From NCBI GenBank assembly GCA_963704755.1, contig OY969938.1, positions 30,001 to 62,000 on the forward strand: a stretch of 32,000 bases of DNA. The letters run 5' to 3'. Each line of letters starts with the position of its first letter. The first letter of the stretch is position 1. This document shows, piece by piece, positions 6,153-21,713 of this stretch. The notes beneath the pieces are model-generated. The model saw nothing but the letters and a program-made list of their open reading frames with translations. It did no database searches and was not told where the DNA came from. Made by a program: the position numbers and the translations under genes. Source of the DNA: an uncultured Chloroflexia bacterium. GTDB lineage: Bacteria; Chloroflexota; Anaerolineae; Anaerolineales; Anaerolineaceae.

Positions 6153-6166
6153 TTTTCCCTCCACCA

Positions 6167-6739: not shown

Positions 6740-8692
6740 TCAGGCAGCGATCTCAACTGGAGATGGCTGTTTGCTTAATTCTGCTTGCCAATCCTCATCC
6801 AGGGCAATGCCTAACCGGCCGGCAATCTTTTCCAGCACAGTGCTGCTGGCTAGCACGGCTTCTGGAGCGGTCAGAGACGCCTGGGCGGCCTGGATACGGC
6901 CATCCATGCTTACATAATGGCCGGCCTGTTCCAGCCAGGATTGAACCGGCAGGACCACATCGGCCTGGGCGGTCAGTTTGGATACATGGCTGGCCTGGAC
7001 GACCAGGAAGGGTGCTTTTTCCAGGGTCTTGACCAGGCTCTCGCTGGGGGCTTCGTCGCCCAGGGCGACAAATGCGGCTTTATGGCCGTTGAGCTTGAAG
7101 GCTTTGTCGAGGCCGTACTGGGCGGCAGCGACACTGTTCGCCCCACCTTTGGGGTCGATCAGCGTGGCGCCGATGGTTTCGGCAAATTTGACCAGGGCCT
7201 GCAATGTGGCCAGGTCGTTGATCTTGGCCGGGTCGTAGATAACAACCGGGTTGCTGGTGTTGGCCAGCCGGAAGGCAGCCTCGAGCAGCAGGTCGGAGGA
7301 CACGCCGGATTTGGCAGCCGCCTCAGCAACAGCCGGGTCGGGCTCACCTTCAAAGGCGGCTTTATTCTGGCCTAATTTGGCCGCAGCAGCGGTCAGGCCG
7401 TTGACCAGGGTGGCTTCCTGCCCGGCTTTGGGGGTCAGGCCACAGTTCGTGAATTGGGTCAGATCGTTTTCCTGCGGGTCGACCACCACCAGGGTGATAT
7501 CGTTGGCCAACTTGCGGCGGATGAAGAAGCCGGTTACCTGGTGTTCGTTCATCAGGTCGGCGCCGAAGACGAGCACGCCGCCGGCGTTCTTGAGCGCATC
7601 CAGCTTGCCTTCGAAGGCTTTCCCGGTCTGGGCAGCCATTTCAGAAGTAATGTGGGTGTTGGAACCTTCTTCCAGGGAGGTAACCATATCCCCGGCCAGG
7701 CCGTCGGCAAAAATTTTCTTGAATGCGTAGAGCGATTCGGCCGGCAGGCGAGCGGAAGCCGTTGCGGCGACGCTGTGATCTTTCAGATGTTCGGCTACTG
7801 CGTCCAGGGCTTCATCCCAGGTAGTGGGGATCAAGGCGCCATCTTTGCGGACCATGGGGGAAAGGATGCGTTCGCGATCCTCACTCAGGGGGATGAAGCG
7901 ACCCTCTTTGCACAACAGGCCCTCGTTGACGGGAGCATCCCAATCGCCTTCGATGCGCACAACCTGCCCGTCACGGGTAAGCACGTCGATACCACAGCCG
8001 ACCGAACAGCCGACACACACGGTAAGGTTGTGCTCCACCTGGGTTTCCCTGCCACGGTAAGCTGAACGGCGGTCGATCAACGCGCCGGTGGGGCAGACCT
8101 GCACGCAGGTACCGCAGGATACACAGGAACTTTCACCCAGGGGCACGTTCAAGTCGGCGATGACGAAGGTCTTGGCGCCGCGCTCTTCAACGCCCAAGGT
8201 GTTGGCGCCGACCAGCTCGGAGCAGGCGCGGATGCAGCGCCGGCAGAGGATGCAGCGGTTGTGCTCCAGGATAAAGAACGGGTGGGAAGCATCCACCGGG
8301 TAGCGCTGCCAGTTAGGCTGTAAGTCCCAGTGGGTCATATCTTCATCGTAGGCCGCGTTTTGTAATTCGCAGTCGCCGCCGCTGACCTGGCAGTAAGGGC
8401 AGAAGTGATTGCGCTCGCTGAAGATCAGGGTCAAGACGAATTTGCGGGCCTTGTTAACTTTTTCGGTGGTGGTGTGAACCACCATGTTGTTGCTGACCGG
8501 GATCGTGCAGGCAGATTGCAGAGTCCGAAAACCGTCGATTTCGACCATACATAACCGGCAGCCCCCATACGGCGTCAGGTGCGGGTGGTCGCACAAGGTG
8601 GGGATATGAATACCGGCCTGTTGGGCTGCTCGTAAAACGGTGGTTCCTTCAGGTACCTCTAGATTTTTATTATCGATTGTGATGGTGACCAT
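6740..8692 (-). CDS. Fe-S electron-transfer subunit: HoxU/NuoG-like N-terminus fused to a molybdopterin-oxidoreductase-like domain
   Basis: From MVTITIDNKNLEVPEGTTVL: a 2Fe-2S motif (CDHPHLTPYGGCRLCMVEI), then CPYC/CELQ, then two ferredoxin 4Fe-4S motifs (CILCRRCIRAC; CVSCGTCVQVCP). Next comes a molybdopterin-oxidoreductase-type 4Fe-4S motif (CVGCSVGCGIDV...LCKEGRF) and about 370 further aa. The AAGGAGAG RBS precedes ATG 8692. The ORF-track start at 8839 would overlap the preceding gene. No H-cluster motifs (TSCCP, MPCxxK) are visible. Confidence 0.85.
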   Translation of the reverse strand: MVTITIDNKNLEVPEGTTVLRAAQQAGIHIPTLCDHPHLTPYGGCRLCMVEIDGFRTLQSACTIPVSNNMVVHTTTEKVNKARKFVLTLIFSERNHFCPYCQVSGGDCELQNAAYDEDMTHWDLQPNWQRYPVDASHPFFILEHNRCILCRRCIRACSELVGANTLGVEERGAKTFVIADLNVPLGESSCVSCGTCVQVCPTGALIDRRSAYRGRETQVEHNLTVCVGCSVGCGIDVLTRDGQVVRIEGDWDAPVNEGLLCKEGRFIPLSEDRERILSPMVRKDGALIPTTWDEALDAVAEHLKDHSVAATASARLPAESLYAFKKIFADGLAGDMVTSLEEGSNTHITSEMAAQTGKAFEGKLDALKNAGGVLVFGADLMNEHQVTGFFIRRKLANDITLVVVDPQENDLTQFTNCGLTPKAGQEATLVNGLTAAAAKLGQNKAAFEGEPDPAVAEAAAKSGVSSDLLLEAAFRLANTSNPVVIYDPAKINDLATLQALVKFAETIGATLIDPKGGANSVAAAQYGLDKAFKLNGHKAAFVALGDEAPSESLVKTLEKAPFLVVQASHVSKLTAQADVVLPVQSWLEQAGHYVSMDGRIQAAQASLTAPEAVLASSTVLEKIAGRLGIALDEDWQAELSKQPSPVEIAA

Positions 8693-8793
8693 TCCAATCA
8701 CTCTCCTTAGCGTATGGGGTTCTTGCACCAGCAAGTCATTTTTAATTTTTTTCTCAACCAGTGACCATCTTCGCCGGATGGCGCCAGGCTCGT

Positions 8794-10432
8794 TTATGCG
8801 TGGACCGGCTGCGCAATTTTGCACACACCGGTTGGGCAAACATGCAGGCGGATATGGGCTTCAACCTCTGCCCGGAAGTAATTCAAGATGTCTCGCAACG
8901 GCGTACCGGCCGACTGGCCCAGGCCGCAATTGGAGAGCTGATACAGGTTATCCGAGAGCTCGGCCAACTGGTCCAAATCGTGCAATGTAGCGCTGCCTGA
9001 GGCAATATTGGTTAATATCTCGTATGCGCGCTGAGTACCGATCCGGCAGGGGTTGCATTTCCCGCAAGATTCGGTGCGGAAGAAGTTCAGCAATACCCGG
9101 GCGAGATCGACCACACAATTATTCTCGTCGCAGATCAACATGGCGCCCGAACCGAGCGAGACGCCGGCTTTGCTGAAGGAGTCGAAGTCCATCGGGGTAT
9201 CCTGGAGTGAGGCGGGAATTATCGAACCGCTCGAACCGCCGGTCTGGGCCATCTTGAAAGAAACCCCGTCTTTCATCCCTTTGGCGTAAATCGCGATGAC
9301 TTCGCGTAAGGTGATGCCCATGGGGACCTCGATCAGGCCGGTTACGTTGACGTTGCCCAATACGGTGTAAACTTTGGTCCCCGGGCTGCTGGGCGTACCA
9401 AAACTACGGAACCAGTTGGCGCCGTTGTTGATAATGGCGGGAATATTGGCCAGGGTCTCGACGTTATTGATCAGGGTGGGTTTGTTCCACAGGCCGTTAG
9501 TGGTGGGGAAAGGTGGACGAGAGCGGGGTTGGCCGCGCTTGCCTTCGATCGACTCGATCAGGGCAGTTTCCTCGCCGCAGATGTAAGCGCCGGCGCCACT
9601 GTGGACGTGCAGTTCGAAGTTGAACCCGCTGTTGAAAATATTTTCGCCCAGGAAACCCATTTCCTTGGCTTGCAGGATGGCCCGGTTCAACCTTTCCTGG
9701 GCTAAAACATATTCGCCGCGGATGTAAATATAACCTTCATCAGCACCGACCGTATAGCCGGCCAGGGTAATCGCTTCGATAATGGCGTGCGGATCGCCTT
9801 CCAGGATCAGGCGGTCTTTGAACGTGCCGGGCTCGGATTTCATCGGCGTTACACAGGACGTATTTCTTGTCCGATTTTTCACGGGCGACGAAACTCCACT
9901 TCAAGCCGGTCGGGAAGCCGGCTCCACCGCGGCCACGCAGCCCGGAGGATTTGATCTCTTCCTGCACCTGTGCCGGTGTCATTTCGGTCAAGGCTTTGCC
10001 GAGGGCCTGGTAACCTTCGTGCAAAATGTAATCTTCGATTTCGTTCGGGTCGATGATGCCGGCCCGGCGCAGGACGATCCGCTGCTCGGCCGGGAGGGTG
10101 CCTTTACGCGCGGACAGCCAGGCGATGTTACCGGATAACTCGCGGATAGACGCCTTCAGGTCTTCGGCGACACGACCTTTGTAGAGGTGTTCTTCGACCA
10201 GGTAAGGGACTTTATCTGGCGTGACCGGCCCGTAGATGACGGCTTCCGGGTACACAATGACGATGGGCAGTGCATCATGGCGGCCAACATCGCCGATCAT
10301 GGACAGTGAAATTTCATCTTCCAGGCCGAAAGCTTTGATCTCTTCCTGGAGTTTATCGAAGACCTCTTGGGCACCCCGCTGCATCGAGATCGGGTCACTG
10401 GATACCAATACCATGGATCGTACGGTTTTCAT
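8794..10432 (-). pseudogene. hoxF: NAD(P)H-binding flavoprotein HoxF/NuoF-like, frame broken by an apparent extra A in an AAA run (plus-strand TTT 9838-9840)
   Basis: ORF 9740..10432 reads ...[18 protein letters not shown]...KYVLCNADE, then goes out of frame. ORF 8794..9882 picks up at [17 protein letters not shown]...ESCGKCNPCRIG...SNCGLGQS. Deleting one base gives the canonical [14 protein letters not shown] junction and a protein of about 545 aa. Confidence 0.85.
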
Positions 10433-10444
10433 TAGTCTCCCTCC

Positions 10445-10924
10445 CTACTCATAATTTCCCAGGATTTCTGAGACTTTCTTGGGATCGACATTGCCATAAA
10501 TATCATCGTCGATGATGATTACCGGGCCAACGCCGCACACACCCAGGCAACTGGTGGTGATCAAAGTCCATTTTCCATCCTGGCTGGTTTCACCGGATTG
10601 CAAATCGAGCTGTTCGCTGAGGCTTTCCCACACCTCGCGGCCGCCAACGACATGACATGGGGCACTTTCACAAAACTGAATCACGTGCCGGCCACGGGGT
10701 TTGGTGGACAGCATGTGGTAAAAACTGGCAACGGAGAACAGGCTGCTCTTGGGTTCACGCAGCCGTCGGCTGATTTCAGACAAGGCTTGTTCAGGAAGGT
10801 AGCCAAGCGAGCGGTTGACATCGTTCAAGATGGGGATCAACTCATCGCGGGTGGCACCATGACGATCAACCGCCGCACCGACAACTTCGTTGATCTTTTC
10901 TTCTTTGGTTGCTGTTACTGCCAT
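10445..10924 (-). CDS. hoxE: NuoE/HoxE-like 2Fe-2S thioredoxin-fold subunit (copy 2)
   Basis: The 159-aa ORF has the NuoE cluster pattern: FCESAPCHVVG ... TTSCLGVCGVGPVIIID. Confidence 0.85.
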   Translation of the reverse strand: MAVTATKEEKINEVVGAAVDRHGATRDELIPILNDVNRSLGYLPEQALSEISRRLREPKSSLFSVASFYHMLSTKPRGRHVIQFCESAPCHVVGGREVWESLSEQLDLQSGETSQDGKWTLITTSCLGVCGVGPVIIIDDDIYGNVDPKKVSEILGNYE

Positions 10925-10986
10925 ACTGGTTCTCCTTTTGGTTTCATTTTGGCCAGTCCGGTTTGGCTGGAGAAATCACTGCCGGG

Positions 10987-12768
10987 TTAGCAAATGTCGA
11001 TCGCGTTGAAATTGCAGACCTGCATACAAATGCCACAGCGGATGCATACGTCGGGGTCGATCGTATGAGTTTGGCGGCGTTCACCGGAGATAGCACCCAC
11101 GGGGCAATTACGCGCACAGACAGTACAGCCGGTGCACGGCTCGGGCTGAATTTCATAGCGGATCAACGCTTTACAGACTTTGGCGGGACAACGCTTTTCG
11201 TAAATATGGGCTTCGTATTCTTCGCGGAAATATTTGAGGATGCTGACGACCGGATTGGGTGCACCCTGGCCGAGCCCACAGAGACTGTTTTGGCTGATTT
11301 CGGCACACAGGTCTTCCAACAGCTCAATGTCTCCATCCTGGCCTTTACCGTCGCATATACGGGTCAGAATTTCCAGAAGTCGGCGGGTGCCCACCCGGCA
11401 GGGTGTGCATTTCCCACAACTCTCATCCTGGGTAAATTCCATGAAGAAACGGGCGATATCGACCATGCACGTATCTTCATCCATAACAATCATACCGCCA
11501 GAACCCATCATCGTGCCGGCTTTTTTGAGCGATTCGTAATCAATGGGCAGGTCCAGATATTCTTCGGGAACACAGCCGCCCATCGGGCCGCCAATCTGGA
11601 CCGCTTTGAATTTCTTATCGTTCTTGATGCCGCCTCCGACGTCGTAGATCACATCCCGCAGGCTGATTCCCAGGGGAACCTCGATCAACCCGGGGCGGTT
11701 CAAATCGCCGGCCAGGGCAAAAGTCTTGGTGCCTTTACTGGTTTCGGTACCCCATTGCGAGTACCATTCTGCACCGTTGAGGATAATCTGGCGAATATTG
11801 GCGTAGGTTTCGACGTTATTGACGTTGGTGGGTTTGCCCCACAGGCCCGAAACGGCCGGGAAAGGCGGCCTGGGACGCGGCTCACCGCGCCGGCCTTCGA
11901 TCGAGCTGATAAGGGCCGTTTCTTCGCCGCAAACAAATGCGCCGGCGCCCATACGTACTTCCAAATCGAAATCGAAACCGGTACCGAAGATATTCTTACC
12001 GAGTAAGCCCAGCGCGCGGGCCTGTTGGATGGCAATATTCAGGGTGGATACCGCGATAGGATATTCGGCGCGGCAGTAGATATAGCCCTGGTGGGCGCCA
12101 ATGGCAAAGGCGGCGATAGTCATCCCTTCCAATACCGAATGGGGATCGCCTTCGAGCACCCGCCGGTTCATGAACGCGCCCGGGTCGCCTTCATCGGCGT
12201 TGCAGATAACGTATTTGATCGGGCTGTTACTTTGTTTGGCTAATTGCCACTTTTTGCCGGTAGGAAAACCTGCGCCGCCACGCCCGCGCAGGCCAGATTT
12301 CAAGACCGTATCGACCACTTCATCCGGCGTCATGCCGGTCAAGACTTTGGCCAGGGCCTGGTAACCATCATCGGCGATGTAATCTTCGATATTGGTTGGG
12401 TCGATTTTGCCGCAGTTTTTCAGCACAACGCGAACCTCTTTGGCGGTCGGCGCGCGCAATTCTTCATCTTGCGATATTGTCTTTCTTTGTTCGAACTTTT
12501 TTACCGGGCGGCCTTTGAGGAAATGTTCTTCTACCAGGTAAGGCATATCATCCGGGGTCATGCCAACGTAATGAATTCCCTCGGGATAGACCATCATTTC
12601 AGGTCCATCCGCGCAACCGCCAATCCTGGATGTTTCGAGAACCTGAACTTCGTCGATTAAACCTTCCTGGACCAGTTCGTCCTGCAAGGCGTCCATCATT
12701 TCGTGAGCGCCCTTTGCCAGGCATTCTGGATCAACACAAACCAATACGTGAGAGCGGAAATACTTCAT
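10987..12768 (-). CDS. NuoF-like FMN/NAD(H) flavoprotein with a C-terminal 2x[4Fe-4S] ferredoxin domain (HydB/HndC type)
   Basis: [30 protein letters not shown] and ESCGKCTPCRVG...SLCGLGQG. The C-terminus has CTGCTVCARNCP and CIRCGICMQVC. The N-terminal thioredoxin-like domain retains three Cys. Confidence 0.9.
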   Translation of the reverse strand: MKYFRSHVLVCVDPECLAKGAHEMMDALQDELVQEGLIDEVQVLETSRIGGCADGPEMMVYPEGIHYVGMTPDDMPYLVEEHFLKGRPVKKFEQRKTISQDEELRAPTAKEVRVVLKNCGKIDPTNIEDYIADDGYQALAKVLTGMTPDEVVDTVLKSGLRGRGGAGFPTGKKWQLAKQSNSPIKYVICNADEGDPGAFMNRRVLEGDPHSVLEGMTIAAFAIGAHQGYIYCRAEYPIAVSTLNIAIQQARALGLLGKNIFGTGFDFDLEVRMGAGAFVCGEETALISSIEGRRGEPRPRPPFPAVSGLWGKPTNVNNVETYANIRQIILNGAEWYSQWGTETSKGTKTFALAGDLNRPGLIEVPLGISLRDVIYDVGGGIKNDKKFKAVQIGGPMGGCVPEEYLDLPIDYESLKKAGTMMGSGGMIVMDEDTCMVDIARFFMEFTQDESCGKCTPCRVGTRRLLEILTRICDGKGQDGDIELLEDLCAEISQNSLCGLGQGAPNPVVSILKYFREEYEAHIYEKRCPAKVCKALIRYEIQPEPCTGCTVCARNCPVGAISGERRQTHTIDPDVCIRCGICMQVCNFNAIDIC

Positions 12769-12815: not shown

Positions 12816-13184
12816 TTAGATCTGGATCATGTTCTCGGTTAACGGTTTCCCTTTAACCACGTGCTCGTTGACAATCTGGCGGGCGACTTCCGCGTTGACT
12901 TTACCGTAGGTCACTTTGGGCTGCTCACCAACGACTACCTGGACGATCGGTTCTTTTTCACACAGGCCAATGCAACCGGTCTGGGTTACAACAACTCCTT
13001 CCAGGTTATCTTCCTGGATGGTATCCAAAATCGCTTTCATTGCATCACGAGCGCCGGCTGCGATACCGCAGGTACCCATACCAACAATGATCTGGATCTG
13101 ACCGGATTCGGTCTTTACCTTGCGTTTTTCCAATGCTTCTTCGCGAATTCTCTTGAGATCGTCCAAACTTTTGATTGTAGGCAT
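12816..13184 (-). CDS. Thioredoxin-like 2Fe-2S ferredoxin (HydD/HndB-like)
   Basis: The 122-aa ORF has GMGTCGIAAGA ... TGCIGLCEKEPIV, the pattern of small 2Fe-2S subunits found in multimeric hydrogenase clusters. Confidence 0.8.
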   Translation of the reverse strand: MPTIKSLDDLKRIREEALEKRKVKTESGQIQIIVGMGTCGIAAGARDAMKAILDTIQEDNLEGVVVTQTGCIGLCEKEPIVQVVVGEQPKVTYGKVNAEVARQIVNEHVVKGKPLTENMIQI

Positions 13185-13222: not shown

Positions 13223-13777
13223 TTATGAAATGGGTTCAGCCTGGAGGGAGTGAATCCCTTCTTTGATCAATTCGTTCAAAAACTTCAAGACGAAGGGCTC
13301 GGTCAAGGAAATTCCATCCAATTCCTCTTTGAGCGGTTCGTCGTCGAAAACAAATTCTTGCTGGTTGAATCGGTAGCGGAAAATCCAATGGACAGCCGGG
13401 TTTGCGACCAACAGGGTGATGAGGGTGTCGCCCAGATTACCCATCGGCATGCGGTCGATATGGCTGCGTTGAAATTCCACTTCGAGCAGGGTGCCTTTGC
13501 CGGGAGCCGATTCGATTTTTAAGCTGCCGTTACATGCTTCAGCGGCTTCTTTGAGTAGCGGTATCCCAAGACCGACTTTGCGCGTCGTTCGGCTGGTGAC
13601 AAAAGGATCCACCACTTTTGCGACGGTTTCTGCATCCATCCCCTTGCCATCATCTTGCACGCTCATATAGAGGCGGTCTGTTTGGGTATCTTCAATGACG
13701 GTAATTTGTACAGTCGCAGCCTGAGCGGCGATGCTGTTTTCGGCGATATCGAGCAGATGGAGCGATAGCTCTCTCAA
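13223..13777 (-). CDS. Stand-alone GHKL/histidine-kinase-like ATPase domain protein
   Basis: N-box LLDIAENSI, G1 DDGKGMD and G2 KVGLGIPLL. No HisKA or dimerisation domain. Its start overlaps the nuoE-like stop by 4 nt. Confidence 0.75.
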   Translation of the reverse strand: MRELSLHLLDIAENSIAAQAATVQITVIEDTQTDRLYMSVQDDGKGMDAETVAKVVDPFVTSRTTRKVGLGIPLLKEAAEACNGSLKIESAPGKGTLLEVEFQRSHIDRMPMGNLGDTLITLLVANPAVHWIFRYRFNQQEFVFDDEPLKEELDGISLTEPFVLKFLNELIKEGIHSLQAEPIS

Positions 13778-14286
13778 GCAGTCCCCTGCACTTTCCGGAG
13801 CACCTGGGGTAGTTTGTTTGGCCGGACGCGACCGACCGATTCTTCATCCACGACGACTACTGGGGCCTGGCTGCAAGCGCCGACACAGCGGCAGATTTCC
13901 ATGGTGATTTCGCCATCCGCTGTGGTCTGTCCGGGTTCGATCCCCAGAATCGTTTTGGCTTTTTCGATCAACTGAGGCGTCCCACCCACATAACAGGCCG
14001 TGCCCATGCAGAACTTGACTACATGTTTTCCGCGCGGGGTGGTGGTGAAAAACGAGTAGAACGATACGACCCCATGCACTGAACTTGCCGGTACATGGAG
14101 CTGTTCTGCTACGTATTGTTGCATAGCGGGAGAGATAAAACCAATCTGGCTTTGCAGTTCGTTGAGGATGACCATGGTGGAACCAGATTTACTTCTATTA
14201 TTTTCCAATATCTGGTCGATAATTTTTTTCTGATCTGGATTGGCCAGCGGATCGTTGGCTGGTATCTTTATTTTTGGAAGGGCCAT
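13774..14286 (-). CDS. NuoE-like 2Fe-2S subunit (copy 1; HydC/HndA-like)
   Basis: The 170-aa ORF has FCMGTACYVGG ... ICRCVGACSQAPVVVVD. Confidence 0.88.
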   Translation of the reverse strand: MALPKIKIPANDPLANPDQKKIIDQILENNRSKSGSTMVILNELQSQIGFISPAMQQYVAEQLHVPASSVHGVVSFYSFFTTTPRGKHVVKFCMGTACYVGGTPQLIEKAKTILGIEPGQTTADGEITMEICRCVGACSQAPVVVVDEESVGRVRPNKLPQVLRKVQGTA

Positions 14287-14397
14287 GAATTTACTCCGCT
14301 AATAAATTGGATGGATTTGGTGCAATTATCCTGTTCCTATCATTGAAAAGTTTAACCATATAGGCGATCCGAAGTAATTGCCAAATGTCATGGTTTA

Positions 14398-14415
14398 TTG
14401 TGAAAGTAATAACAA
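14398..14415. promoter_or_regulatory. Candidate Rex-type operator (TTGTGAA-AGTA-ATAACAA)
   Basis: The left half-site matches the Rex consensus TTGTGAA-N4-TTCACAA perfectly; the right half matches 5/7. It lies in the only sizeable gap (143 bp) of the long minus-strand operon, next to a possible minus-strand promoter (TTGGCA at 14379-14384, 16 nt spacer, TATATG at 14357-14362). Confidence 0.3.
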
Positions 14416-14429
14416 TCGGTTGATGCCGC

Positions 14430-15191
14430 CTAAATTGTCTCGGATTGCGTCTGAGACAGCTCGCGATAAGACCGCCCATCTGCATGCCGGAGGGCCAGGC
14501 GGATTTCAGCGATTGTGGGATTTTCGATCGAAAACAGGTTCGCCCCACGGAGTTCGTTCAAGCGATGGGCGTCGCCATCCTGAATCAGGGGAAAACCTTC
14601 CAATTGGGGGAAGACATGGGCTGCCTGGGATGGTTTGAGGTGGCGTGATATCTCCAGGGCTTCCCAGGGAATGTCCGCCGGGACGAAACCCAGCAATGGA
14701 ATCAGACCATTGGCTTTACGGTCCACGTGGGCGGGAATGAACAAACCACCCAGGTCGTTGACCTGGCGCCAGGCTTCTTCGAGAGATAGGTCGGCCGAGG
14801 TTAGCAGCAGCCGCTCTTCACGGGCGACGAAGTCTCCGTTTTGATCGACAAATAACTGGTCGCCAAAATAGTCGGCCCGATTTTTCTGATCGGGCAGTTT
14901 TTGATCGACGATGGCTTGCCAGGTACGGGCCTGGTCCAGGCTGTCGAAAAGGCACAGCGAGTGGACTTCTTCGCGGGTCTGAATTTCCATGCCGGGTAAA
15001 ACGGTCAGGCCGGTACCCTGGGCGGCCTGCATGACGGCCTGGGCGTTCCCGCTGGCGTTGTGGTCGGTAATGGCGAGAACCTGGATACCAAGATCCAATG
15101 CTTCCATGACGATCAGCGGTGGGAGCATTTCAATTTCAGCGCAGGGAGAAAGTACAGTATGGACGTGGAGTTCTGCTCGGAAGGTTTTCAC
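14430..15191 (-). CDS. PHP (polymerase/histidinol-phosphatase) family metal-dependent phosphoesterase
   Basis: LHVHTVLSPCA ... LAITDHN ... IPAHVDR ... DGDAH, the His/Asp metal-ligand pattern of PHP domains. GTG start preceded by AGGAGGAG. Confidence 0.8.
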   Translation of the reverse strand: MKTFRAELHVHTVLSPCAEIEMLPPLIVMEALDLGIQVLAITDHNASGNAQAVMQAAQGTGLTVLPGMEIQTREEVHSLCLFDSLDQARTWQAIVDQKLPDQKNRADYFGDQLFVDQNGDFVAREERLLLTSADLSLEEAWRQVNDLGGLFIPAHVDRKANGLIPLLGFVPADIPWEALEISRHLKPSQAAHVFPQLEGFPLIQDGDAHRLNELRGANLFSIENPTIAEIRLALRHADGRSYRELSQTQSETI

Positions 15192-15210
15192 CCTGCCTGC
15201 GCTCCTCCTG

Positions 15211-15549
15211 TCATCGTAATCCTAACTCCCATAATTTACCCGCAACGACAAAGGTTGGCTCCGAGGTCGATAGGAGGGTGATACCTTCACTGTTGGCTTT
15301 TTCTATGGTGGGTTGTTCGGGTTGGGCGTTCTCGGTGATAATCACGGCGGCCAGTTCAAGCAGGGCTGCCACGGCAACGATATTATTGTGGGCTTGTAAG
15401 GTGACCCAAAGCCCGTTGTGGCAGGCTCCGGTCATAACGCAGCTCAATAAATCTGCGGCGTACCCTCCGGCTGGAGAAATTGTGGAAAAATCTTTTGGTT
15501 CCGTTAATACTTTGAGGTTCAAAGCTCGGATTACATCGGCCAGATTCAT
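15211..15549 (-). CDS. DRTGG-domain protein (copy 2)
   Basis: The internal ATG at 15549 (MNLADVIRALNLKVL...) follows AGGAGG and sits just after the upstream stop; the ORF-track start at 15675 would overlap that gene. The layout (...AADLLSCVM...VTLQAHNNIVAVAAL...AAVIITE...GITLLSTSEPTF) fits my recollection of the DRTGG fold. Not searched. Confidence 0.6.
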   Translation of the reverse strand: MNLADVIRALNLKVLTEPKDFSTISPAGGYAADLLSCVMTGACHNGLWVTLQAHNNIVAVAALLELAAVIITENAQPEQPTIEKANSEGITLLSTSEPTFVVAGKLWELGLR

Positions 15550-15560
15550 CAAATTTCCTC

Positions 15561-16553
15561 CTAGTTCTTGGTCTGAGATCTTTCGCCTACCGTATCTTCC
15601 TTGTCCAAATTCATTTTCATTTGCAGGCGAGTGCCTTTCCCTAATATCGATTCGAGCTTCATTACATCCACGCAACGGTTGATATTCGCCAGGCCCATCC
15701 CGGCTCCAAACCCTAACTCGCGAACTTTTTCGGGTGCAGTTGAATAGCCCGGGCGCATAGCCAGTTCTACATTTTCGATGCCCGGCCCGGAATCGTAAAC
15801 GTCGATCGAAATCTGGTGCGGTTCAATTTCCACCCGGATGACACCCCCCTCGGTGGTATGGATGATCAGGTTCATCTCCGCTTCATAGACGGCGATACCG
15901 CAGCGGCGAGCAATCTGGGGATTGGCCCCCATGCGGGTTAGCGCGCGTTTGATCTTGGAAGAGGCCTCTCCGCCATGGGCGAAATCGCCGGATTTGACGT
16001 GATAGCGCATAATCAAGCTGGTCCGTTCCGATTCGATATCTTCGAACAGGTGACTGGCGCGATACCGGCGAACTTCCTCGGTCTGGTAATCCTTTTCCAG
16101 GGCTTTCAGGATGCCGTTGGTAATATCGCCCTTGGTGATAATGCCTAACAGATCCCCATTTTTATCCAGCACCGGCAGCCGGCCGACCTGGGTATCGGCG
16201 AAGACCTTCAGCGCTTCGACGACCGGATCGGAGTAGAGAATCGTGAAAAGATTGCAGCTCATATATTTTTGAATGTCCGAATCCAGGTCGTTACTGACCA
16301 GGCAGCGGATCAAGTCTTCGATGCTGATGACGCCGATCAGCTTGCCATCTGCGACGATCGGTGCTCCCGAGATGCGCGCCTGGCGGAAACGTTCCAGTAC
16401 CGCAGACATTTTGGTATCAGCCGACATACTGATGATGTTGCGGCTCATGACCTCGTGAACTTTTATCTCGTAAGCAAGTTCTTCTACCCGAGTAATATTT
16501 TCGGCTTCTTCGTCGGTTATGATCCTGGATTTACTTGGTTTTTGCTGGTCCAT
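15561..16553 (-). CDS. CBS-pair + HATPase_c protein (RsbW/SpoIIAB-like serine kinase/anti-sigma type)
   Basis: Two CBS repeats (VHEVMSRNIISMS...GAPIVADGKLIGVISIEDL; ...GRLPVLDKNGDLLGIITKGDI). A GHKL ATPase core follows (EAEMNLIIHT, DSGPGI, GFGAGMGLANI). Confidence 0.8.
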   Translation of the reverse strand: MDQQKPSKSRIITDEEAENITRVEELAYEIKVHEVMSRNIISMSADTKMSAVLERFRQARISGAPIVADGKLIGVISIEDLIRCLVSNDLDSDIQKYMSCNLFTILYSDPVVEALKVFADTQVGRLPVLDKNGDLLGIITKGDITNGILKALEKDYQTEEVRRYRASHLFEDIESERTSLIMRYHVKSGDFAHGGEASSKIKRALTRMGANPQIARRCGIAVYEAEMNLIIHTTEGGVIRVEIEPHQISIDVYDSGPGIENVELAMRPGYSTAPEKVRELGFGAGMGLANINRCVDVMKLESILGKGTRLQMKMNLDKEDTVGERSQTKN

Positions 16554-16587
16554 TGATTTCCCTGACTGGAAGCATTAAGAAGAACCT

Positions 16588-16866
16588 TTATTCGCAAGAA
16601 CAATCGCCATCAACGACGGGCTTTTCCATACACTGTATGCCGGCCTGGTACAATTTTCCACAAGCCTCAAACATACCAAAAGGGGTACCGATCAAGGGTA
16701 CTCCTTCCTGGTCGGCCAGGTCGATGGTTTCACGAGGCGGCGTTTTTCCGCGCACCAGAACAATCGCGGTGATATCGGCCATTTGGGCCGTGCGGATGAC
16801 CTGCGGGTTGCACAAACCGGTCAATAGAACGGCCTCGGGTTGGAGGGAGGCCAAAACATCACTCAT
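16588..16866 (-). CDS. DRTGG-domain protein (copy 1)
   Basis: The 92-aa ORF reads AVLLTGLCNPQVIRTAQMADITAIVLVRGKTPPRETIDLADQEGVPLIGTPFGMFEA. It is the first gene after the 500-bp AT-rich divergent intergenic region. Confidence 0.6.
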   Translation of the reverse strand: MSDVLASLQPEAVLLTGLCNPQVIRTAQMADITAIVLVRGKTPPRETIDLADQEGVPLIGTPFGMFEACGKLYQAGIQCMEKPVVDGDCSCE

Positions 16867-17370
16867 CAGGTCAGCTCCACCACAACCGTTGACCTCTTGA
16901 TCAAGAGTGGCGTTCGTGTTCAGAAGTTTTCCATTGATTAATCGAATGAGGTCATTAAGATTTCATGTCGTTTGCCTGCAAATCAAGCGGGATCTCCCCG
17001 GAATTTTACTGTTTTATAAAATAAGATAAAAAGTTATCTCATGAGTGGTTTTTAGAATCGCCTCATCGCAAAAAAACCAGACCCATAAGCACTCTTCACT
17101 TTGTCGGATTTAATCGCAATTCGCCATATAAGAACTTAACATAATCCCCCGAATCCGGTAAGTGGATAAAATCATAATCTCAAGGTCAATTGTCATCATT
17201 TGAGGGTTGACCATTCAATTTATTCTGAATAGGGTATTCCCTGCCTGTTTTTCTGGCCGGATCTTGCAAATGGCCGTTCATCGCTCCAGAAATTGCGCAT
17301 AGCAAATTGAGGCGGGGATAGATTAACGTGTTAAAATCAGAATGATTAATCCCACCGAGCAGGAATCGTT

Positions 17371-18642
17371 ATGGCAAAGATCATTCAACCAGTCAAGGGA
17401 ACACGGGATTTTTATCCCGAGGAAATGGCAGCACGCTCCTGGTTATACCAGCAACTACGGCAGGTATCAGAATCCTATGGATATCAGGAATACGAAGCTC
17501 CCTTTCTTGAAAAGATCGACCTTTACGCGGCCAAGTCCGGTGAAGAGTTGGTCAAAGAACAGGCGTTTGTCTTTCCGGACCGGGGTGGGGATTTAATCAC
17601 CTTACGCCCGGAACTAACGCCCAGCCTGGCACGCATGGTTGCCCAACGCCAGCAGCAGTTCTTTTACCCCTTGCGGTGGTGGTCTTTTGGCCCATTCTGG
17701 CGCTACGAAAAGCCACAGCGCGGGCGGACGCGTGAGTTCTTTCAATGGAATATCGACCTGATCGGCCCCAGCTCGTCCGAATCGGATGCGGAGTTGATTT
17801 CGGTGGCAGCCAGCCTCTTTAAACGGGTGGGCCTGTCTTCCAATCAGGTACAGATTTCGGTAAATGACCGGCGCTTGATGGATGCGCAGTTGACCAAACT
17901 GGGGTTAGCCGATAGCAGCCAGAAGAAAGCGGTTTTTCGTTTGATCGACCGCCGGGACAAAATGCCTTTCGCAGCCTGGAAGGATTATGCGCTGGAACTT
18001 GGATTGGATGAAACCCAGTTCGAAAAGTTCCTGGCGGTGCTGGATGACCAATCCTTATGGGAGCAAAGCCCGGATATGGTTCAGTTGTTCGCGGCCCTGG
18101 AGGCTTCAGGGGCGAAAGAATACGTGCGCTTTGACCCGCAAGTGATTCGCGGATTGGAATATTACACCGGCACCGTTTTCGAAGCCCACGATGTACAGGG
18201 TGAGGGACGGGCCATCCTGGGTGGCGGCCATTACGATAACCTGGTCGGCGATGTGGGGGGCAACCCACTGGCGGGAGTCGGGTTTGCTATGGGCGATGTG
18301 ATGGTCACCCTGATCCTGAAGGATTATGGTTTACTGCCGGAATACAGCGGAACACCTGCCCAGGTACTGGTGACTTTGTTCGATGAGAACCTCAAAAACG
18401 ATGCGATCGCGCTGGCCAGCCGGCTGCGAGAGTCCGGGGTCAGCACGGCCTGTTTTACCGAGGTGCAGAAGCTGCCGCGCCAGTTCAAATACGCCGACCG
18501 GCTGGGTGTGCGCTTTGTGGTCATCGTCGGCCCGGAGGAACAGGCGGCCAGAACTGCGACCTTGAAAGATTTGCCTTTGGGCAGCCAGGAAACAGTACCT
18601 CAGGATCAACTGGCCGGGGTTATACTGGCCAAGCTGAGTTGA
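17371..18642 (+). CDS. hisS: Histidine--tRNA ligase
   Basis: KGTRDFYPEE, RPELTPS, FRYE-like WRYEKPQRGRTREF, GGGHYDNL, and a C-terminal anticodon-binding domain (VLVTLFDE...VRFVVIVGPEE). Confidence 0.92.
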   Translation: MAKIIQPVKGTRDFYPEEMAARSWLYQQLRQVSESYGYQEYEAPFLEKIDLYAAKSGEELVKEQAFVFPDRGGDLITLRPELTPSLARMVAQRQQQFFYPLRWWSFGPFWRYEKPQRGRTREFFQWNIDLIGPSSSESDAELISVAASLFKRVGLSSNQVQISVNDRRLMDAQLTKLGLADSSQKKAVFRLIDRRDKMPFAAWKDYALELGLDETQFEKFLAVLDDQSLWEQSPDMVQLFAALEASGAKEYVRFDPQVIRGLEYYTGTVFEAHDVQGEGRAILGGGHYDNLVGDVGGNPLAGVGFAMGDVMVTLILKDYGLLPEYSGTPAQVLVTLFDENLKNDAIALASRLRESGVSTACFTEVQKLPRQFKYADRLGVRFVVIVGPEEQAARTATLKDLPLGSQETVPQDQLAGVILAKLS

Positions 18643-18716
18643 AAATAGGATGATTTTTGATGGAATGGGGCGGTCAAGCCGTCCCATTCCATTGCGAAAT
18701 TCTGACCAAGAATCTT

Positions 18717-18745
18717 GCATAAGAAGGATGGCTGTGATAAAATGG
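18717..18745 (+). promoter_or_regulatory. Sigma-70-type promoter for tRNA-His (TTGCAT-17 nt-TAAAAT)
   Basis: The hexamers and 17-nt spacing are read directly; they lie about 38 nt upstream of the tRNA 5' end. Confidence 0.45.
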
Positions 18746-18783
18746 GGGCTCTCGGGCGGTTCAACTGACCGAAAAAGTAGTAT

Positions 18784-18858
18784 GGTGGGCGTAGCTCAAT
18801 GGCAGAGCGTCGCACTGTGGATGCGAATGTTGTGGGTTCGATCCCCATCGCCCACCCA
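18784..18858 (+). tRNA. tRNA-His (anticodon GTG) with genomically encoded G-1
   Basis: Hand-folded cloverleaf: G(-1)-GTGGGCG / CGCCCAC-C acceptor, GCTC/GAGC D stem, TCGCA-CTGTGGA-TGCGA anticodon arm, GTGGG-TTCGATC-CCCAT T arm. Confidence 0.9.
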
Positions 18859-18867
18859 GATAAGAAC

Positions 18868-18894
18868 ACATCCCACGCAGGGATGTTTTTATTT
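18868..18894 (+). terminator. Rho-independent terminator after tRNA-His
   Basis: ACATCCC-ACGCA-GGGATGT followed by TTTTTATTT. Confidence 0.6.
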
Positions 18895-19333
18895 GTGACT
18901 TTGATAGATCATTAATTTGCGGCTTTTCCTTTATAATAATGGTATAAGAAGCCACTCAGCCTGTCGAAACCCAATTTGGTTTTGAGTTGTTTACGGAGAG
19001 GTCCATGCCAGTAAACTGCCCAGGTGTACTGGATCCGTCAGGGCACCAGTGTGGTGGTTAGGAGAGCATCAATTTGGACGGAAAGATTTTGCATAAACCT
19101 TTTAACGGCGAGGCCGTAAAAAAGTTATCCGGGCAAAATCTGATCGTTTTCTGCGAACCGGATTGATGTCTGCAGAGACCGTTTGAAATTTCACCTGTGG
19201 GATTAATAAAATAACCGTTGCAAAAAACGAAAGAAAGGTGTGCGTGGGGGCTGCAATCCTTACGTATATCTTTTGATTTGTAGGCTTTGTGGGTGATACT
19301 TCTCTAAAATTATTGCCATAAAGAGAAAAATCG

Positions 19334-20926
19334 ATGTCAGAATACACGGTTTTAATCTTCGATAATGACACAGCAGCCGTTGAATATTGCCGTTCGGTTC
19401 TCAGCCAGGCTTCATTTGGTGTGAAGAGCGCAAATACCCCCCCAGAAGCGCTGGTAATTCTCGAAAAAGACCGTATTGACGTATTAATCGCTGCATTGGA
19501 TGGTTCAGAGGATGAATTAGTGGCTTTTGTGCACCAGGCGCGAAAGAAGAATCTTTTGCTGCCTGTTGTGGTTTTGGCCGGGTCAGGTCAGTTTCGACCG
19601 GCTTTGAAAGGCCTGCGTAAGGGAATCGACGGGCTGCTGATTAAACCGCTCGATGATCCGGGTGAAATTCTGGAAACCGTACAATATGCGCTTAGACAGC
19701 GCGATTTACGCCGGCGGATGGACGAGGTGAATAACATCCATCCTATGTTCGAATTTGGACAAAACATGCTCCCTGAAACAATCCCGGATGAATTGGGGAA
19801 TCGGGTGCTTCAGGTTTTCCTCAAGATGCTGCAAGCCAGCTATGGGGGTATCTTCGTCAATCAAAATAAAAGCTCAGGCTGGCGGATATTTAGCGAGTGT
19901 GGGCCGGAACAATTCGCCGGCCTGGACGAACCGGGTTTGAACAAAATCCTCGACAGTACCCGTGATTTGGGCCAAAAGGTCGTTTTTGGACCGCCGCAAA
20001 ACAACCCGTTGTTTGAAAACTGGCTGGCAGAAAAAGGACTTAAGCCCGTTTTCGTCCCAAGTACCTGGCAGGAGCATGATTACATTTTCTTCGCGCTGCG
20101 CAGCGCTGAACTGCCGGCGATGGGCGAAGCGGATGTACAGGATTTATCCAGGCTGGTCAACCATTCTGTGATTGCCCTGGATTATATGCAAAAAAATGCC
20201 GATCTGCGCACCAACATCAACCATTTGGAAGAATCAAAAAAGCTGGCGGTTCTCAGCGAAAAGATGGATGCTTTGGGCCGCCTGATTTCGACTGTGGCAC
20301 ACGAAGTAAATAATCCCTTGCAATCGATCACCAACTGCCTGCACCTGGCCAGCCGGACGGATGTATCCGAAGAGCGCAAACAGGGCTACATTCAACTGGC
20401 GCTGGGCGAGGTGGATCGCCTTTCAAACCTGGTCCAAAGCGCGCTTCATTTTTACCGGCCCAACCTGGTTCAGGAGAGCCAAATCGACCTGGCCGATCTG
20501 TTTGAAACCGTGCTGGGGCTGCTCGAGCCGCAATTACTGTCTCAGGATATTACCGTTCACAGAAATTATGGATCCGGATGTTATCCGGTCAAGGGGATCG
20601 CCGCTTCACTTCAACAGGTATTTTTAAATATCCTTTTGAATGCAATTCAGGCGGTTCAAACCACCCCTGCCCCCCATGAGATTTGGATCGACCTGGCTCG
20701 CGCAGAAACGACCACCCAGGTTCGCATTGAAGATTCAGGGCCGGGGTTGAATCCGGTGGCTCAAAAACGGGTATTCGAGCCCTTCTTTACCACCAAGTCC
20801 AATGGGACCGGGTTAGGCTTATCGATCAGTTACGAAATTATTGTGGATGTACACCGCGGTGAAATGGGGTTCGTTGAGGGAGCCCATGGGAAAGGCGCTT
20901 GTATCAGTATTTCTCTGAGGGAGTAA
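19334..20926 (+). CDS. Sensor histidine kinase with an N-terminal receiver-like domain
   Basis: H-box STVAHEVNNPLQSI, N-box NILLNAIQA, G-boxes EDSGPGL and GTGLGLSISYEI. The first ~120 aa look like a REC fold (VLIFDND...DVLIAALDG...LLIKP). Confidence 0.85.
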   Translation: MSEYTVLIFDNDTAAVEYCRSVLSQASFGVKSANTPPEALVILEKDRIDVLIAALDGSEDELVAFVHQARKKNLLLPVVVLAGSGQFRPALKGLRKGIDGLLIKPLDDPGEILETVQYALRQRDLRRRMDEVNNIHPMFEFGQNMLPETIPDELGNRVLQVFLKMLQASYGGIFVNQNKSSGWRIFSECGPEQFAGLDEPGLNKILDSTRDLGQKVVFGPPQNNPLFENWLAEKGLKPVFVPSTWQEHDYIFFALRSAELPAMGEADVQDLSRLVNHSVIALDYMQKNADLRTNINHLEESKKLAVLSEKMDALGRLISTVAHEVNNPLQSITNCLHLASRTDVSEERKQGYIQLALGEVDRLSNLVQSALHFYRPNLVQESQIDLADLFETVLGLLEPQLLSQDITVHRNYGSGCYPVKGIAASLQQVFLNILLNAIQAVQTTPAPHEIWIDLARAETTTQVRIEDSGPGLNPVAQKRVFEPFFTTKSNGTGLGLSISYEIIVDVHRGEMGFVEGAHGKGACISISLRE

Positions 20927-20933
20927 GAAAACG

Positions 20934-21713
20934 ATGGAAGCACCGCATATTTTAATAGTCGATGACGATGCAGTCGAGCGCTCTACTCTTGTGGATATCT
21001 TTCAACTCGAGAATTTTCAAGTGACCGAGGTTACCAATGGCGACCTGGCTTTAGAAGCACTCTCGAAAGGAATATTCGATTTAATGCTGCTCGACCTGCA
21101 CCTGGTCGGCATGAGTGGGATCGAAGTATTGGAGCGCGTCGCTGTCGCTTATCCCCGCACCAAGGTGATCATCCTGACCGCGCATGGCAGTTTTGATACC
21201 GCCGTGCAGGCGCTGCGGCTGCGGGTAGGCGATTACCTGGCCAAGCCCATCCGCCCCGAAGAGTTGCTGGAAAGTATTCACCGGGTGCTTTCGAAGACCG
21301 AAGCCACTGAGACAGCAGGCTATGCCGGCGAAGATGTCGTACCCTCGACCTGGAAGCCGGCCGGGAGTGCCGCGCTTATGCCAAGCTCCATTGACCTGTC
21401 CAATGGGGTGACGATCAATTGTATCCGCCGGATTATTTCCTGGGACGCCTGTGAAATCAGCTTGACACCGATCGAAGCCCGCCTGATAGCCTACCTGTTT
21501 GCCCATCACAAACAATTGATTGCCCACCAGGACCTGGTCAAGGCCGTATACGATTATTCGCTTTCCAACCTGGAAGCAGCCAAAATTTTGCGGACGGCCA
21601 TATCCAGGCTCAATAAAAAATTGGTCCGCATTCCGGGGGGAAGGGATTGGATCGAAAATGTGCGCGGGGCGGGGTATTTGTTGGACGTTTCGCCGGAACG
21701 GATAGTGCCGTAG
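20934..21713 (+). CDS. Response regulator, REC + OmpR/PhoB-type winged-helix output
   Basis: ILIVDDD...LMLLDLHLVGMSG...ILTAHG...YLAKP. The C-terminus reads LTPIEARLIAYL...VRGAGYLLD. It starts 8 nt after the kinase stop, with a GGAGGGAG RBS. Confidence 0.88.
   Translation: MEAPHILIVDDDAVERSTLVDIFQLENFQVTEVTNGDLALEALSKGIFDLMLLDLHLVGMSGIEVLERVAVAYPRTKVIILTAHGSFDTAVQALRLRVGDYLAKPIRPEELLESIHRVLSKTEATETAGYAGEDVVPSTWKPAGSAALMPSSIDLSNGVTINCIRRIISWDACEISLTPIEARLIAYLFAHHKQLIAHQDLVKAVYDYSLSNLEAAKILRTAISRLNKKLVRIPGGRDWIENVRGAGYLLDVSPERIVP

Follow-up and report, generated by a model that had tools for sequence, protein, structure and literature searches.

The stretch analyzed here (the window) comprises 32,000 nucleotides (nt) from an uncultured Chloroflexia bacterium of the Anaerolineaceae (assembly GCA_963704755.1, contig OY969938.1, positions 30,001 to 62,000 of the forward strand), and positions below are those of the window unless another locus is named. 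An original prediction, made from the letters of the window, described five non-redox genes interleaved with those of a hydrogenase: two for small DRTGG proteins (DRTGG-A and DRTGG-B), one for a CBS pair fused to a kinase-like GHKL domain (CBS-GHKL), one for a PHP phosphoesterase (PHP) and one for a stand-alone GHKL ATPase (also called GHKL2). All five were found on the minus strand, at or near the positions given, and comparison with other genomes showed that they are not chance neighbors. The gene order, in the direction of transcription, was as follows.

16588-16966, minus strand: DRTGG-A, about 125 amino acids (aa), open reading frame (ORF) as called 16588-16866 (Pfam DRTGG)
15561-16553, minus strand: CBS-GHKL, a CBS pair fused to a SpoIIAB/RsbW-type GHKL ATPase or kinase-like domain, 330 aa (Pfam)
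15211-15549, minus strand: DRTGG-B, 112 aa, a paralogue of DRTGG-A (Pfam DRTGG)
14430-15191, minus strand: PHP, a PHP-family metal-dependent phosphoesterase, 253 aa (Pfam PHP, PF02811, 31.3 bits against a cut-off of 26.4)
PHP-NuoE spacer, 143 nt, minus strand: Rex-box-like inverted repeat TTGTTATTACTTTCACAA at 14398-14415 and a promoter-like site at 14384-14355
13774-14286, minus strand: NuoE-1, first copy of a NuoE/HydC-type [2Fe-2S] subunit (Pfam 2Fe-2S_thioredx, 155.7 bits)
13223-13777, minus strand: GHKL2, a stand-alone GHKL ATPase of the histidine-kinase catalytic (CA) type, 184 aa including an 80-aa C-terminal domain, TTG start (Pfam HATPase_c, 58 bits)
12816-13184, minus strand: Fdx, a thioredoxin-like [2Fe-2S] ferredoxin, HydD-like (Pfam and NCBIfam matches, all sub-threshold)
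10987-12768, minus strand: NuoF-1, a NuoF/HydB-type flavoprotein with an N-terminal [2Fe-2S] and a C-terminal 2x[4Fe-4S] domain (Pfam Complex1_51K, NADH_4Fe-4S, Fer4)
10445-10924, minus strand: NuoE-2 (Pfam/NCBIfam)
8794-10432, minus strand: NuoF-2, frameshifted near 9838 (Pfam/NCBIfam)
6740-8839, minus strand: NuoG/HoxU-like subunit with a molybdopterin-type domain (Pfam/NCBIfam)
6167-6709, minus strand: [NiFe] hydrogenase small subunit (Pfam/NCBIfam)
4719-6176, minus strand: [NiFe] hydrogenase large subunit (Pfam/NCBIfam)

The genes are tightly spaced, the only sizeable gap being the 143 nt between PHP and NuoE-1, and AGGAGG ribosome-binding sites lie ahead of DRTGG-B and PHP. The translational overlap predicted at 13774-13777 is real, the TGA stop of NuoE-1 and the TTG start of GHKL2 being merged as TTGA, and the second GHKL ATPase is indeed present between NuoE and the ferredoxin, whose gene was kept behind it in the loci examined. 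The predicted domain assignments were recovered by Pfam, with CBS, HATPase_c, HATPase_c_2 and PHP over their thresholds and both DRTGG domains over theirs after correction of the gene starts. From its subunits, the hydrogenase is assigned as a [NiFe] enzyme with a Bfu/HydABC-like diaphorase part, and not as an [FeFe] enzyme. The NuoE/NuoF pairs stand in tandem (8794-12768), an arrangement conserved across the Anaerolineae. NuoF-1 has, at its N terminus ([2Fe-2S]) and its C terminus (2x[4Fe-4S]), the additional domains of bifurcating HydB-type subunits, and no match to a Fer4-type C-terminal domain was obtained for NuoF-2.

When genomes were scanned with the CBS-GHKL protein, 302 matches were confirmed, and the best 80 loci, nearly all from Anaerolineae/Chloroflexota and with 61-72% identity, were analyzed. 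Neighborhood genes were mapped by tblastn and custom hidden Markov models, with counts taken over informative loci. Two DRTGG genes were present in 78/80 of these Anaerolineae loci, as was PHP; the second GHKL gene was found in 72/75 informative loci and NuoF in 69/72. Overall, the gene order was kept in about 70 of the 80 genomes. In 121 of the loci fetched, a DRTGG-B-type gene directly preceded PHP. The catalytic partner was a [NiFe] hydrogenase in 47 loci and a formate transporter with a molybdopterin formate dehydrogenase (the Thermanaerothrix type) in 10. The co-occurrence with NuoEF-type hydrogenases that had been proposed for checking was therefore strong as regards NuoEF, whereas the genes tracked NuoE-Fdx-NuoF and not a hydrogenase as such. 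The type case of the formate dehydrogenase arrangement is Thermanaerothrix (L001), in which the same ten upstream genes are followed, at 17825-20401 of that locus, by a FocA-type formate transporter and the molybdopterin formate dehydrogenase in place of the [NiFe] subunits. When this dehydrogenase frame was extended downstream, a stop codon was met in frame, which could encode selenocysteine or simply mark where the gene ends. A weak, displaced NuoG-like match like that of L001 was seen in L002, L004, L006, L023, L029, L032, L041 and L070, which are presumed to be alike.

Distant homologues were collected by an exhaustive search of a 50%-identity representative library, followed by re-queries with distant members. 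The CBS-GHKL query retrieved 106 families at E < 1e-30, with full-length CBS-GHKL proteins down to 33% identity. The GHKL domain alone was 44-53% identical to three other architectures, namely stand-alone kinases of 140 aa; fusions of the kinase to Fer4 and PF04060 domains, 435-562 aa long and most of them with Fe_hyd_lg_C as well, equivalent to a HydS-like sensory [FeFe]-hydrogenase module; and fusions of 261-286 aa with a DRTGG-A-type domain ahead of the kinase. These DRTGG-kinase fusions were found in Thermovenabulum, Thermosediminibacter, Caldanaerovirga, Aminicenantales and Desulfobacterota.

The gene order around these homologues was similar in several lineages. In Thermovenabulum gondwanense (Firmicutes, L085), the order is Rex, DRTGG-GHKL, HydS-like, DRTGG, PHP, NuoE, GHKL2, Fdx, NuoF, [FeFe] HydA and Rnf, with a 44%-identical GHKL2. 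A 330-kb metagenome contig (L087) carries a cassette of the T. gondwanense type followed by NuoE, Fdx, NuoF, a NuoG-like gene, FlpD and a [NiFe] hydrogenase. In Candidatus (Ca.) Hakubella thermalkaliphila (L081), DRTGG, CBS-GHKL and DRTGG lie beside HydABC and the HydEFG maturases; a gene for a SpoIIE-type PP2C lies at 1-337 of this locus, directly ahead of NuoE in the HydABC cluster, and the contig ends before any gene for PHP is reached. One metagenome-assembled genome (MAG; L083) has Rex, DRTGG, CBS-GHKL, DRTGG, NuoE, Fdx and NuoF, without PHP and GHKL2. A Desulfobacterota MAG (L086, 10001-12822) has DRTGG-GHKL, DRTGG, PHP, GHKL2 and a stand-alone receiver, with no NuoEF or hydrogenase gene within 10 kb, and from this free-standing cassette it follows that the five gene products belong together. 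In L152 (2238-3578), one uninterrupted ORF of 447 aa spans PHP and GHKL2. As the sole example, it may be either a natural fusion or an error in sequencing.

Another 80 loci, several of them from human gut assemblies, came from a scan of metagenomes in which the fusion family served as seed. Among informative loci, the second DRTGG gene was present in 48/48, PHP in 41/41, GHKL2 in 37/39, NuoF in 31/35 and a HydS-like gene in 70/70. The catalytic partners were [FeFe] hydrogenase in 11 loci, formate dehydrogenase in 7 and [NiFe] hydrogenase in 3. Most of the HydS-like ORFs retain H-cluster motifs L2 and L3, while in L1 the CCP is changed to xCP with loss of the first Cys, which we take to be typical of sensory HydS proteins. 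A HydS-like H-domain protein is absent from the window and from all of the informative Anaerolineae loci (0/53). The sensor is thus swapped between lineages, being a CBS pair in the Anaerolineae and an adjoining or fused HydS-like H-domain in the metagenome loci and the Firmicutes genome, and the sensory role first proposed for the set is reinforced by this exchange. Because the partner varies between [NiFe] hydrogenase, [FeFe] hydrogenase and formate dehydrogenase, the cassette goes with the NuoE-Fdx-NuoF (Bfu/HydBC) module and not with any one catalytic subunit. The fusions further suggest two sub-modules, one of DRTGG-A, kinase and sensor and the other of DRTGG-B, PHP and GHKL2.

The kinase-like protein CBS-GHKL was matched in Pfam to CBS (96 bits), HATPase_c (39.5 bits) and HATPase_c_2 (36 bits). 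Its best GHKL match in NCBIfam was SpoIIAB, at 58.8 bits and under the equivalog cut-off of 135, and SpoIIAB entries 1til and 1l0o were matched by sequence in the PDB. The N box (YEAEMNLIIH), G1 box (DSGPGI) and G2 box (GFGAGMGL) were invariant or nearly so in 81 sequences, comprising the window protein and its Anaerolineae orthologues; the family alignments used throughout were of this kind, with 73-81 sequences each. An AlphaFold2 model was obtained for a homologue, the DRTGG-GHKL fusion P0222, from an alignment of 73 sequences, with a predicted local distance difference test (pLDDT) score of 90, a predicted template-modeling score (pTM) of 0.82 and a disordered linker. In Foldseek searches of the PDB, its C-terminal half matched SpoIIAB (E = 1.7e-10, target-normalized template-modeling score [TM-score] 0.85) and also RsbW. 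Its N-terminal half matched the DRTGG protein AF1212 (2ioj, target-normalized TM-score 0.79) and the DRTGG domain of a CBS-pyrophosphatase (3l31, 3l2b); no STAS structure was among the PDB matches of the model. The description of the first GHKL domain as SpoIIAB/RsbW-like was upheld by both the sequence and the model matches. Both CBS domains, as read from the sequence, contain the motif GhhS/TxxD (GVISIED and GIITKGD), which contacts the ribose-phosphate of adenosine ligands. Adenine nucleotides, and with them energy charge, are the most likely input of the CBS pair.

Both small proteins were correctly assigned to the DRTGG family, but the boundaries given for them were not correct. As first delimited, they scored 23.0 and 24.9 bits against the Pfam DRTGG profile (PF07085), below its cut-off of 25.2; after correction of the gene starts, both passed, DRTGG-A with 30.0 bits and DRTGG-B with 25.9. 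DRTGG-A is longer than the predicted 16588-16866, its frame being broken just after the ATG (16964-16966) by one extra A in ATGAAATC at 16959-16966. The upstream in-frame peptide NLNDLIRLING... aligns with relatives that start with MELKQVIEILNG and are 118-127 aa long. The true start of DRTGG-B is the ATG at 15549, with AGGAGG 8 nt before it, and not the upstream TTG. A second frameshift was noted in NuoF-2, where one additional A in GATGAAATCC (9836-9843) divides the gene between two frames; all relatives have a single continuous frame, and the split reflects either recent pseudogenization or an indel from sequencing or assembly. The window has three ATGAAATC sites, and two of them coincide with the two frameshifts, both +1 A. 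A systematic methylation-motif artifact at GANTC sites was considered as their source and rejected, because GAATC (35 sites) and GATTC (21 sites) are abundant in the window.

DRTGG-A and DRTGG-B are 29% identical (E = 7e-11), and the N-terminal half of the fusion P0222 shares 40% identity with DRTGG-A (E = 7e-29). The eponymous DR and TGG residues are replaced, by TGLCNPQ and VRGK in DRTGG-A and by TxQxH in DRTGG-B. Each paralogue carries its own signature across phyla, DLMSDVL, LxTGL and RxK in DRTGG-A and DLLSxV and WxTxQxHxN in DRTGG-B, the latter being conserved in 120 sequences. A Ser within a DL(M/L)S motif is invariant in both. The original prediction had regarded the two proteins as possible phospho-acceptors or partners. 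For DRTGG-A, the fusions with the kinase that several lineages show point less to a substrate than to a partner or regulatory domain that is built in; DRTGG-B is the best candidate for a phospho-acceptor, although unproven.

PHP retains the metal-ligand motifs HVH, DH(N), GME, PAH and GDAH in the Anaerolineae alignment. When its family profile was compared with the PDB, the first match was Endonuclease Q (EndoQ; 5zb8, E = 2e-12, both halves), followed by RNase AM (7ug9) and TM0559 (2anu), with YcdX and PolC PHP domains also among the matches. The suggestion that PHP is an opposing phosphatase found no backing here, the nearest solved relatives being nucleases and nucleotide phosphoesterases.

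In GHKL2, the CA motifs are kept, including N, G1 (DDGKGM), F (DPF) and G2 (GLGIPL). Across an alignment of Anaerolineae, Firmicutes, Desulfobacterota and unassigned-metagenome members, the invariant residues are N14, D42xGxG46, D57PF59, G69LG71, G95T96 and H106xD108xxP111xG113. The family profile matched the CA domains of KinB (3d36, E = 7e-14), ZraS and WalK in the PDB, with coverage of residues 5-100 only, and weak matches of the MutL/HATPase_c_3 type were also obtained. GHKL2 has the N, G1, F and G2 boxes of a CA domain but differs from two-component sensor kinases in lacking a DHp/HisKA domain: no such domain was matched in Pfam or NCBIfam, and the N box lies directly at the protein start. 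The 80-aa C-terminal domain, which carries the invariant HxDxxPxG motif, had no sequence match in the PDB; judged from the residues that are conserved, it may be of mixed alpha/beta type. A single-sequence AlphaFold2 model of GHKL2 had a pLDDT of 47 and was unusable. A circularly permuted histidine kinase was considered, from the H-box-like SHIDRMPLG that follows the CA domain, and was not adopted, since the residue pattern speaks more for a mixed alpha/beta segment than for a helical hairpin. The single point in favor of permutation was the presence of nearby response regulators at two loci, with a receiver gene after GHKL2 in L086 and one before the DRTGG/CBS-GHKL/DRTGG trio in L081; in the window, no response regulator adjoins GHKL2. 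Judged from the alignments, the ATP-binding and metal-binding motifs of CBS-GHKL, GHKL2 and PHP are all intact.

The 143-nt spacer was of interest for transcription. Rex-box-like sites (at most two mismatches to TTGTGAAN4TTCACAA) occurred in 15/74 Anaerolineae PHP-NuoE spacers against 19/2000 random windows, an enrichment of about 20-fold. The scan gave 6 promoter-like sites, near the mean of 4.7 obtained after shuffling, and no rex gene was found in the window. Taken with the promoter-like site, the Rex-like boxes hint that the redox genes may have their own NADH-responsive promoter, and the sensory genes may form a separate upstream unit.

Parts of the cassette have been encountered before under other names. 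In Acetobacterium woodii, HydE of the hyd operon is a histidine-kinase-like ATP-binding protein that is not part of the purified enzyme and to which no function is assigned (PMC3315566). For the NiFe-HydABCSL operon of Acetomicrobium mobile, hisK and hydD are shown and are stated not to be part of the holoenzyme (PMC9304861). GHKL2 stands beside NuoE (hydC) and Fdx (hydD) in the window, L085 and L087. A. woodii hydE is presumably placed alike, between hydC and hydD in a hydCEDBA operon. GHKL2 thus probably corresponds to A. woodii "HydE" and A. mobile "hisK" by domain type and gene position, and by way of the 44%-identical Firmicutes member (L085), not by comparison with their sequences, with the domain and position of hisK themselves presumed. 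The published descriptions found for these two operons differ in mentioning no upstream DRTGG, kinase or PHP genes and no cassette. The HydA operon of Halanaerobium (Halsa_1862-1871) contains PHP, a histidine kinase, an anti-sigma Ser/Thr kinase and iron-sulfur (FeS)/hydrogenase-like genes, which are left uncommented (PMC4237134), and in Hydrogenedentota, HATPase_C domains occur on group C1 [FeFe] hydrogenases adjoining group A3 enzymes (PMC11406978). The putative sensory group C [FeFe]-hydrogenase systems beside group A3 enzymes (HydDB C1, HydS) resemble the cassette in having the kinase-like GHKL (44-53% identical) with a fused or adjoining HydS-like H-domain, and the HydS-type variant keeps the downstream order DRTGG, PHP, GHKL, NuoE, Fdx, NuoF; it can be recognized in published operon lists such as that of Halanaerobium Halsa_1862-1871 (PMC4237134). 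The window differs in that it has no H-domain protein and has a CBS pair on the kinase instead. The hfs/HydS systems of the literature, for their part, use PAS domains and PP2C phosphatases; hfsABCD of Thermoanaerobacterium was considered as the same system and set aside as different, being of the PP2C type (PMC5707799). In the literature searched, no functional study of the cassette was found, nor any of DRTGG proteins in hydrogenase operons, in agreement with the earlier statement that the set has no established function. The cassette genes are therefore already contained in published operons, and the form with the CBS sensor is a new variant.

The exchangeable sensor, the intact ATP and metal sites and the occasional association with Rex, a response regulator or PP2C argue for signal transduction. 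On the whole, we consider it somewhat probable that the five genes are the Anaerolineae version of a conserved accessory signaling cassette of NuoE-Fdx-NuoF oxidoreductase operons, acting as a posttranslational device that here would read adenine nucleotides. The state of the sensor would set the ATP-dependent activity or binding state of the CBS-GHKL kinase, and the kinase and PHP would have opposite effects on a phosphorylated intermediate, possibly DRTGG-B. As a result, the activity or assembly state of the flavin/FeS module would be tuned after translation; transcription of the redox genes might be controlled separately by a Rex-type operator. The data show the domain identities, the intact catalytic motifs, the synteny over several phyla, the swapping of sensors and the DRTGG-A-kinase fusions, whereas the CBS ligand, the phospho-acceptor, the substrate of PHP and the output in this scheme are those that we infer. 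A more far-reaching version is offered tentatively, and we rate it as rather unlikely: the cassette may represent an unrecognized type of phospho-signaling or partner switching, with DRTGG in place of STAS, PHP in place of PP2C, an orphan CA-domain effector and exchangeable inputs (a CBS pair for energy charge or a HydS-like domain for H2), that would act posttranslationally on bifurcating NuoEF/Bfu-type hydrogenases and formate dehydrogenases in many phyla of anaerobes, including gut bacteria.

Several observations weigh against a signaling cassette dedicated to the NuoE-Fdx-NuoF module. The whole cassette or part of it occurs at a few fully flanked loci with no NuoEF nearby (L014, L062, L066, L109, L117, L121, L129 and L086). 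The four upstream genes are kept in L008 and L014, followed in L014 by an epimerase and phosphofructokinase, and only DRTGG-A and CBS-GHKL are kept in L062 and L066, followed in L066 by MutS2 and EF-G. Neither a sigma factor nor a DNA-binding protein, nor any other output protein, is encoded in the cassette. No CpsB/YwqE-type or other protein phosphatase was among the PDB profile matches of PHP, whose closest solved relatives are EndoQ and RNase AM. The invariant Ser of DL(M/L)S aligns with what we take, from the Pfam consensus, to be a conserved motif of DRTGG domains in general, and it may therefore be structural.

The original prediction likened the set to a partner-switching circuit. In the fuller form of this proposal, the RsbW-like kinase would phosphorylate a Ser or Thr of the DRTGG proteins, PHP would dephosphorylate it, and the unphosphorylated partner would free a sequestered target, for instance a sigma factor, Rex or a subunit of the enzyme. 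The set would work somewhat in the manner of the SpoIIAB/SpoIIAA/SpoIIE and RsbW/RsbV/RsbU modules, sharing with them a small GHKL kinase of the same fold with intact N, G1 and G2 boxes that is encoded alongside small partners and a phosphoesterase. The partners are two single-domain paralogues with the invariant Ser, the phosphoesterase gene adjoins them, Rex lies directly upstream in Firmicutes-type loci, and a SpoIIE-type PP2C stands beside NuoE in Ca. Hakubella; kinase/PP2C pairs around sensory hydrogenases have also been discussed (PMC5707799). The canonical circuit, however, was not recovered: the cluster genes that were scanned included no STAS domain, PP2C or sigma factor, PHP was the one phosphoesterase of the cluster, and a PP2C gene was seen at the Ca. 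Hakubella locus only. In the flanks of the cluster are HisRS, a tRNA and a pair of histidine kinase and response regulator genes. The partners of the cassette are of the DRTGG fold, matching DRTGG and not STAS structures, the esterase is a PHP protein whose profile found no protein-phosphatase relative, the kinase carries a CBS pair (elsewhere DRTGG or a hydrogenase-like sensor), and a second, histidine-kinase-type ATPase is added. The DRTGG-A-kinase fusion in several lineages would also be unusual for a substrate. True partner switching is thus a possible but doubtful account of the set.

A lower probability is given to the alternative of an assembly or maturation set, in which the GHKL ATPases would be ATP-driven clamps or chaperones and PHP a processing enzyme that together build or repair the flavin/FeS NuoEF module. 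The translational coupling of the second GHKL gene to NuoE and its weak MutL/HATPase_c_3-type matches fit such a role, HydE of A. woodii has been suggested for "assembly or signalling" (PMC3315566), and the proteins resemble maturases in being absent from purified enzymes (PMC3315566, PMC9304861). The interchangeable sensors on the first GHKL domain (CBS or HydS-like H-domain), on the other hand, argue for sensing and not maturation; several loci carry the cassette without NuoEF, and L083 keeps NuoE-Fdx-NuoF with the DRTGG/CBS-GHKL trio but without PHP and GHKL2. Heterologous HydABC enzymes have, moreover, been produced without such genes, which counts against assembly.

Equally improbable in our estimate is a nucleotide messenger system, with PHP as a phosphodiesterase for a signaling nucleotide or nucleic acid (diadenosine tetraphosphate [Ap4A], pAp or a cyclic dinucleotide) and CBS and DRTGG as receptors or allosteric regulators. 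This reading accommodates EndoQ, RNase AM and TM0559 as the nearest solved relatives of PHP, the position of DRTGG-B directly before PHP in loci having both, and the invariant S, TG and RxK of DRTGG-A, which might form a phosphate-binding pocket. It also draws on the CBS-DRTGG-CBS insert of family II CBS-pyrophosphatases, where a CBS pair, DRTGG and a metal-dependent phosphoesterase are likewise combined; in the accounts available of these enzymes, the insert is an adenine-nucleotide/Ap4A regulatory element, the CBS pair binding AMP, ADP, ATP and Ap4A and controlling catalysis allosterically. The DRTGG half of the P0222 model matched that insert (3l31, 3l2b). The elements of the cassette are, however, separate polypeptides, with a PHP and not a DHH phosphoesterase, with the DR/TGG residues lost and two GHKL ATPases added. 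EndoQ is a remote profile match, and PHP, with 253 aa against 400, lacks the additional domains specific to EndoQ; the messenger scheme also leaves the two intact GHKL ATPases and the swap to an H2-type sensor unexplained. Control of a transcription factor by the cassette is a further possible rival. Unrelated hitch-hiking of the genes as operon neighbors is effectively refuted by the synteny statistics, with order and content conserved over Chloroflexota, Firmicutes, Desulfobacterota, Ca. Hakubella and many metagenome lineages and with the components found fused to one another.

Outside the cluster, several features were recorded. Downstream of the [NiFe] large subunit, a 183-aa ORF without a Pfam match (4178-4729, minus strand) is 46% conserved in L055 and may encode a maturation protease, and genes for a protein with a cyclic nucleotide (cNMP)-binding domain and for a HypB/CobW-type GTPase follow at 2376-2867 and 1279-1959, both on the minus strand. 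Upstream of DRTGG-A, HisRS lies on the plus strand (17371-18642), opposite to the strand of the cassette, as in most Anaerolineae loci. Beyond it are a tRNA (18785-18856, plus strand), which was the only Rfam match in the scan, and a receiver-histidine kinase hybrid (19334-20926, plus strand) adjoining a probable response regulator (20934-21713, plus strand). This histidine kinase/response regulator pair is 2.5 kb from the cassette and on the other strand.

For specialists on hydrogenases, the gene set itself will hold no surprise, and what the window contributes is a variant and a comparative framework, not a function. In published operon figures, the cassette genes appear as the unexplained entries "hisK," "HydE," "PHP" and "anti-sigma kinase." The enzymes of the Bfu/HydABC type set the H2/formate balance of fermenters, acetogens and syntrophs, and it is their matching to energy state and H2 pressure that is at issue. 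Treating the entries as one multiphylum cassette with interchangeable sensors, an adenylate-type CBS pair or an H2-type sensor according to lineage, makes the question testable, and it provides concrete targets for biochemistry and for the engineering of H2 or ethanol yields.

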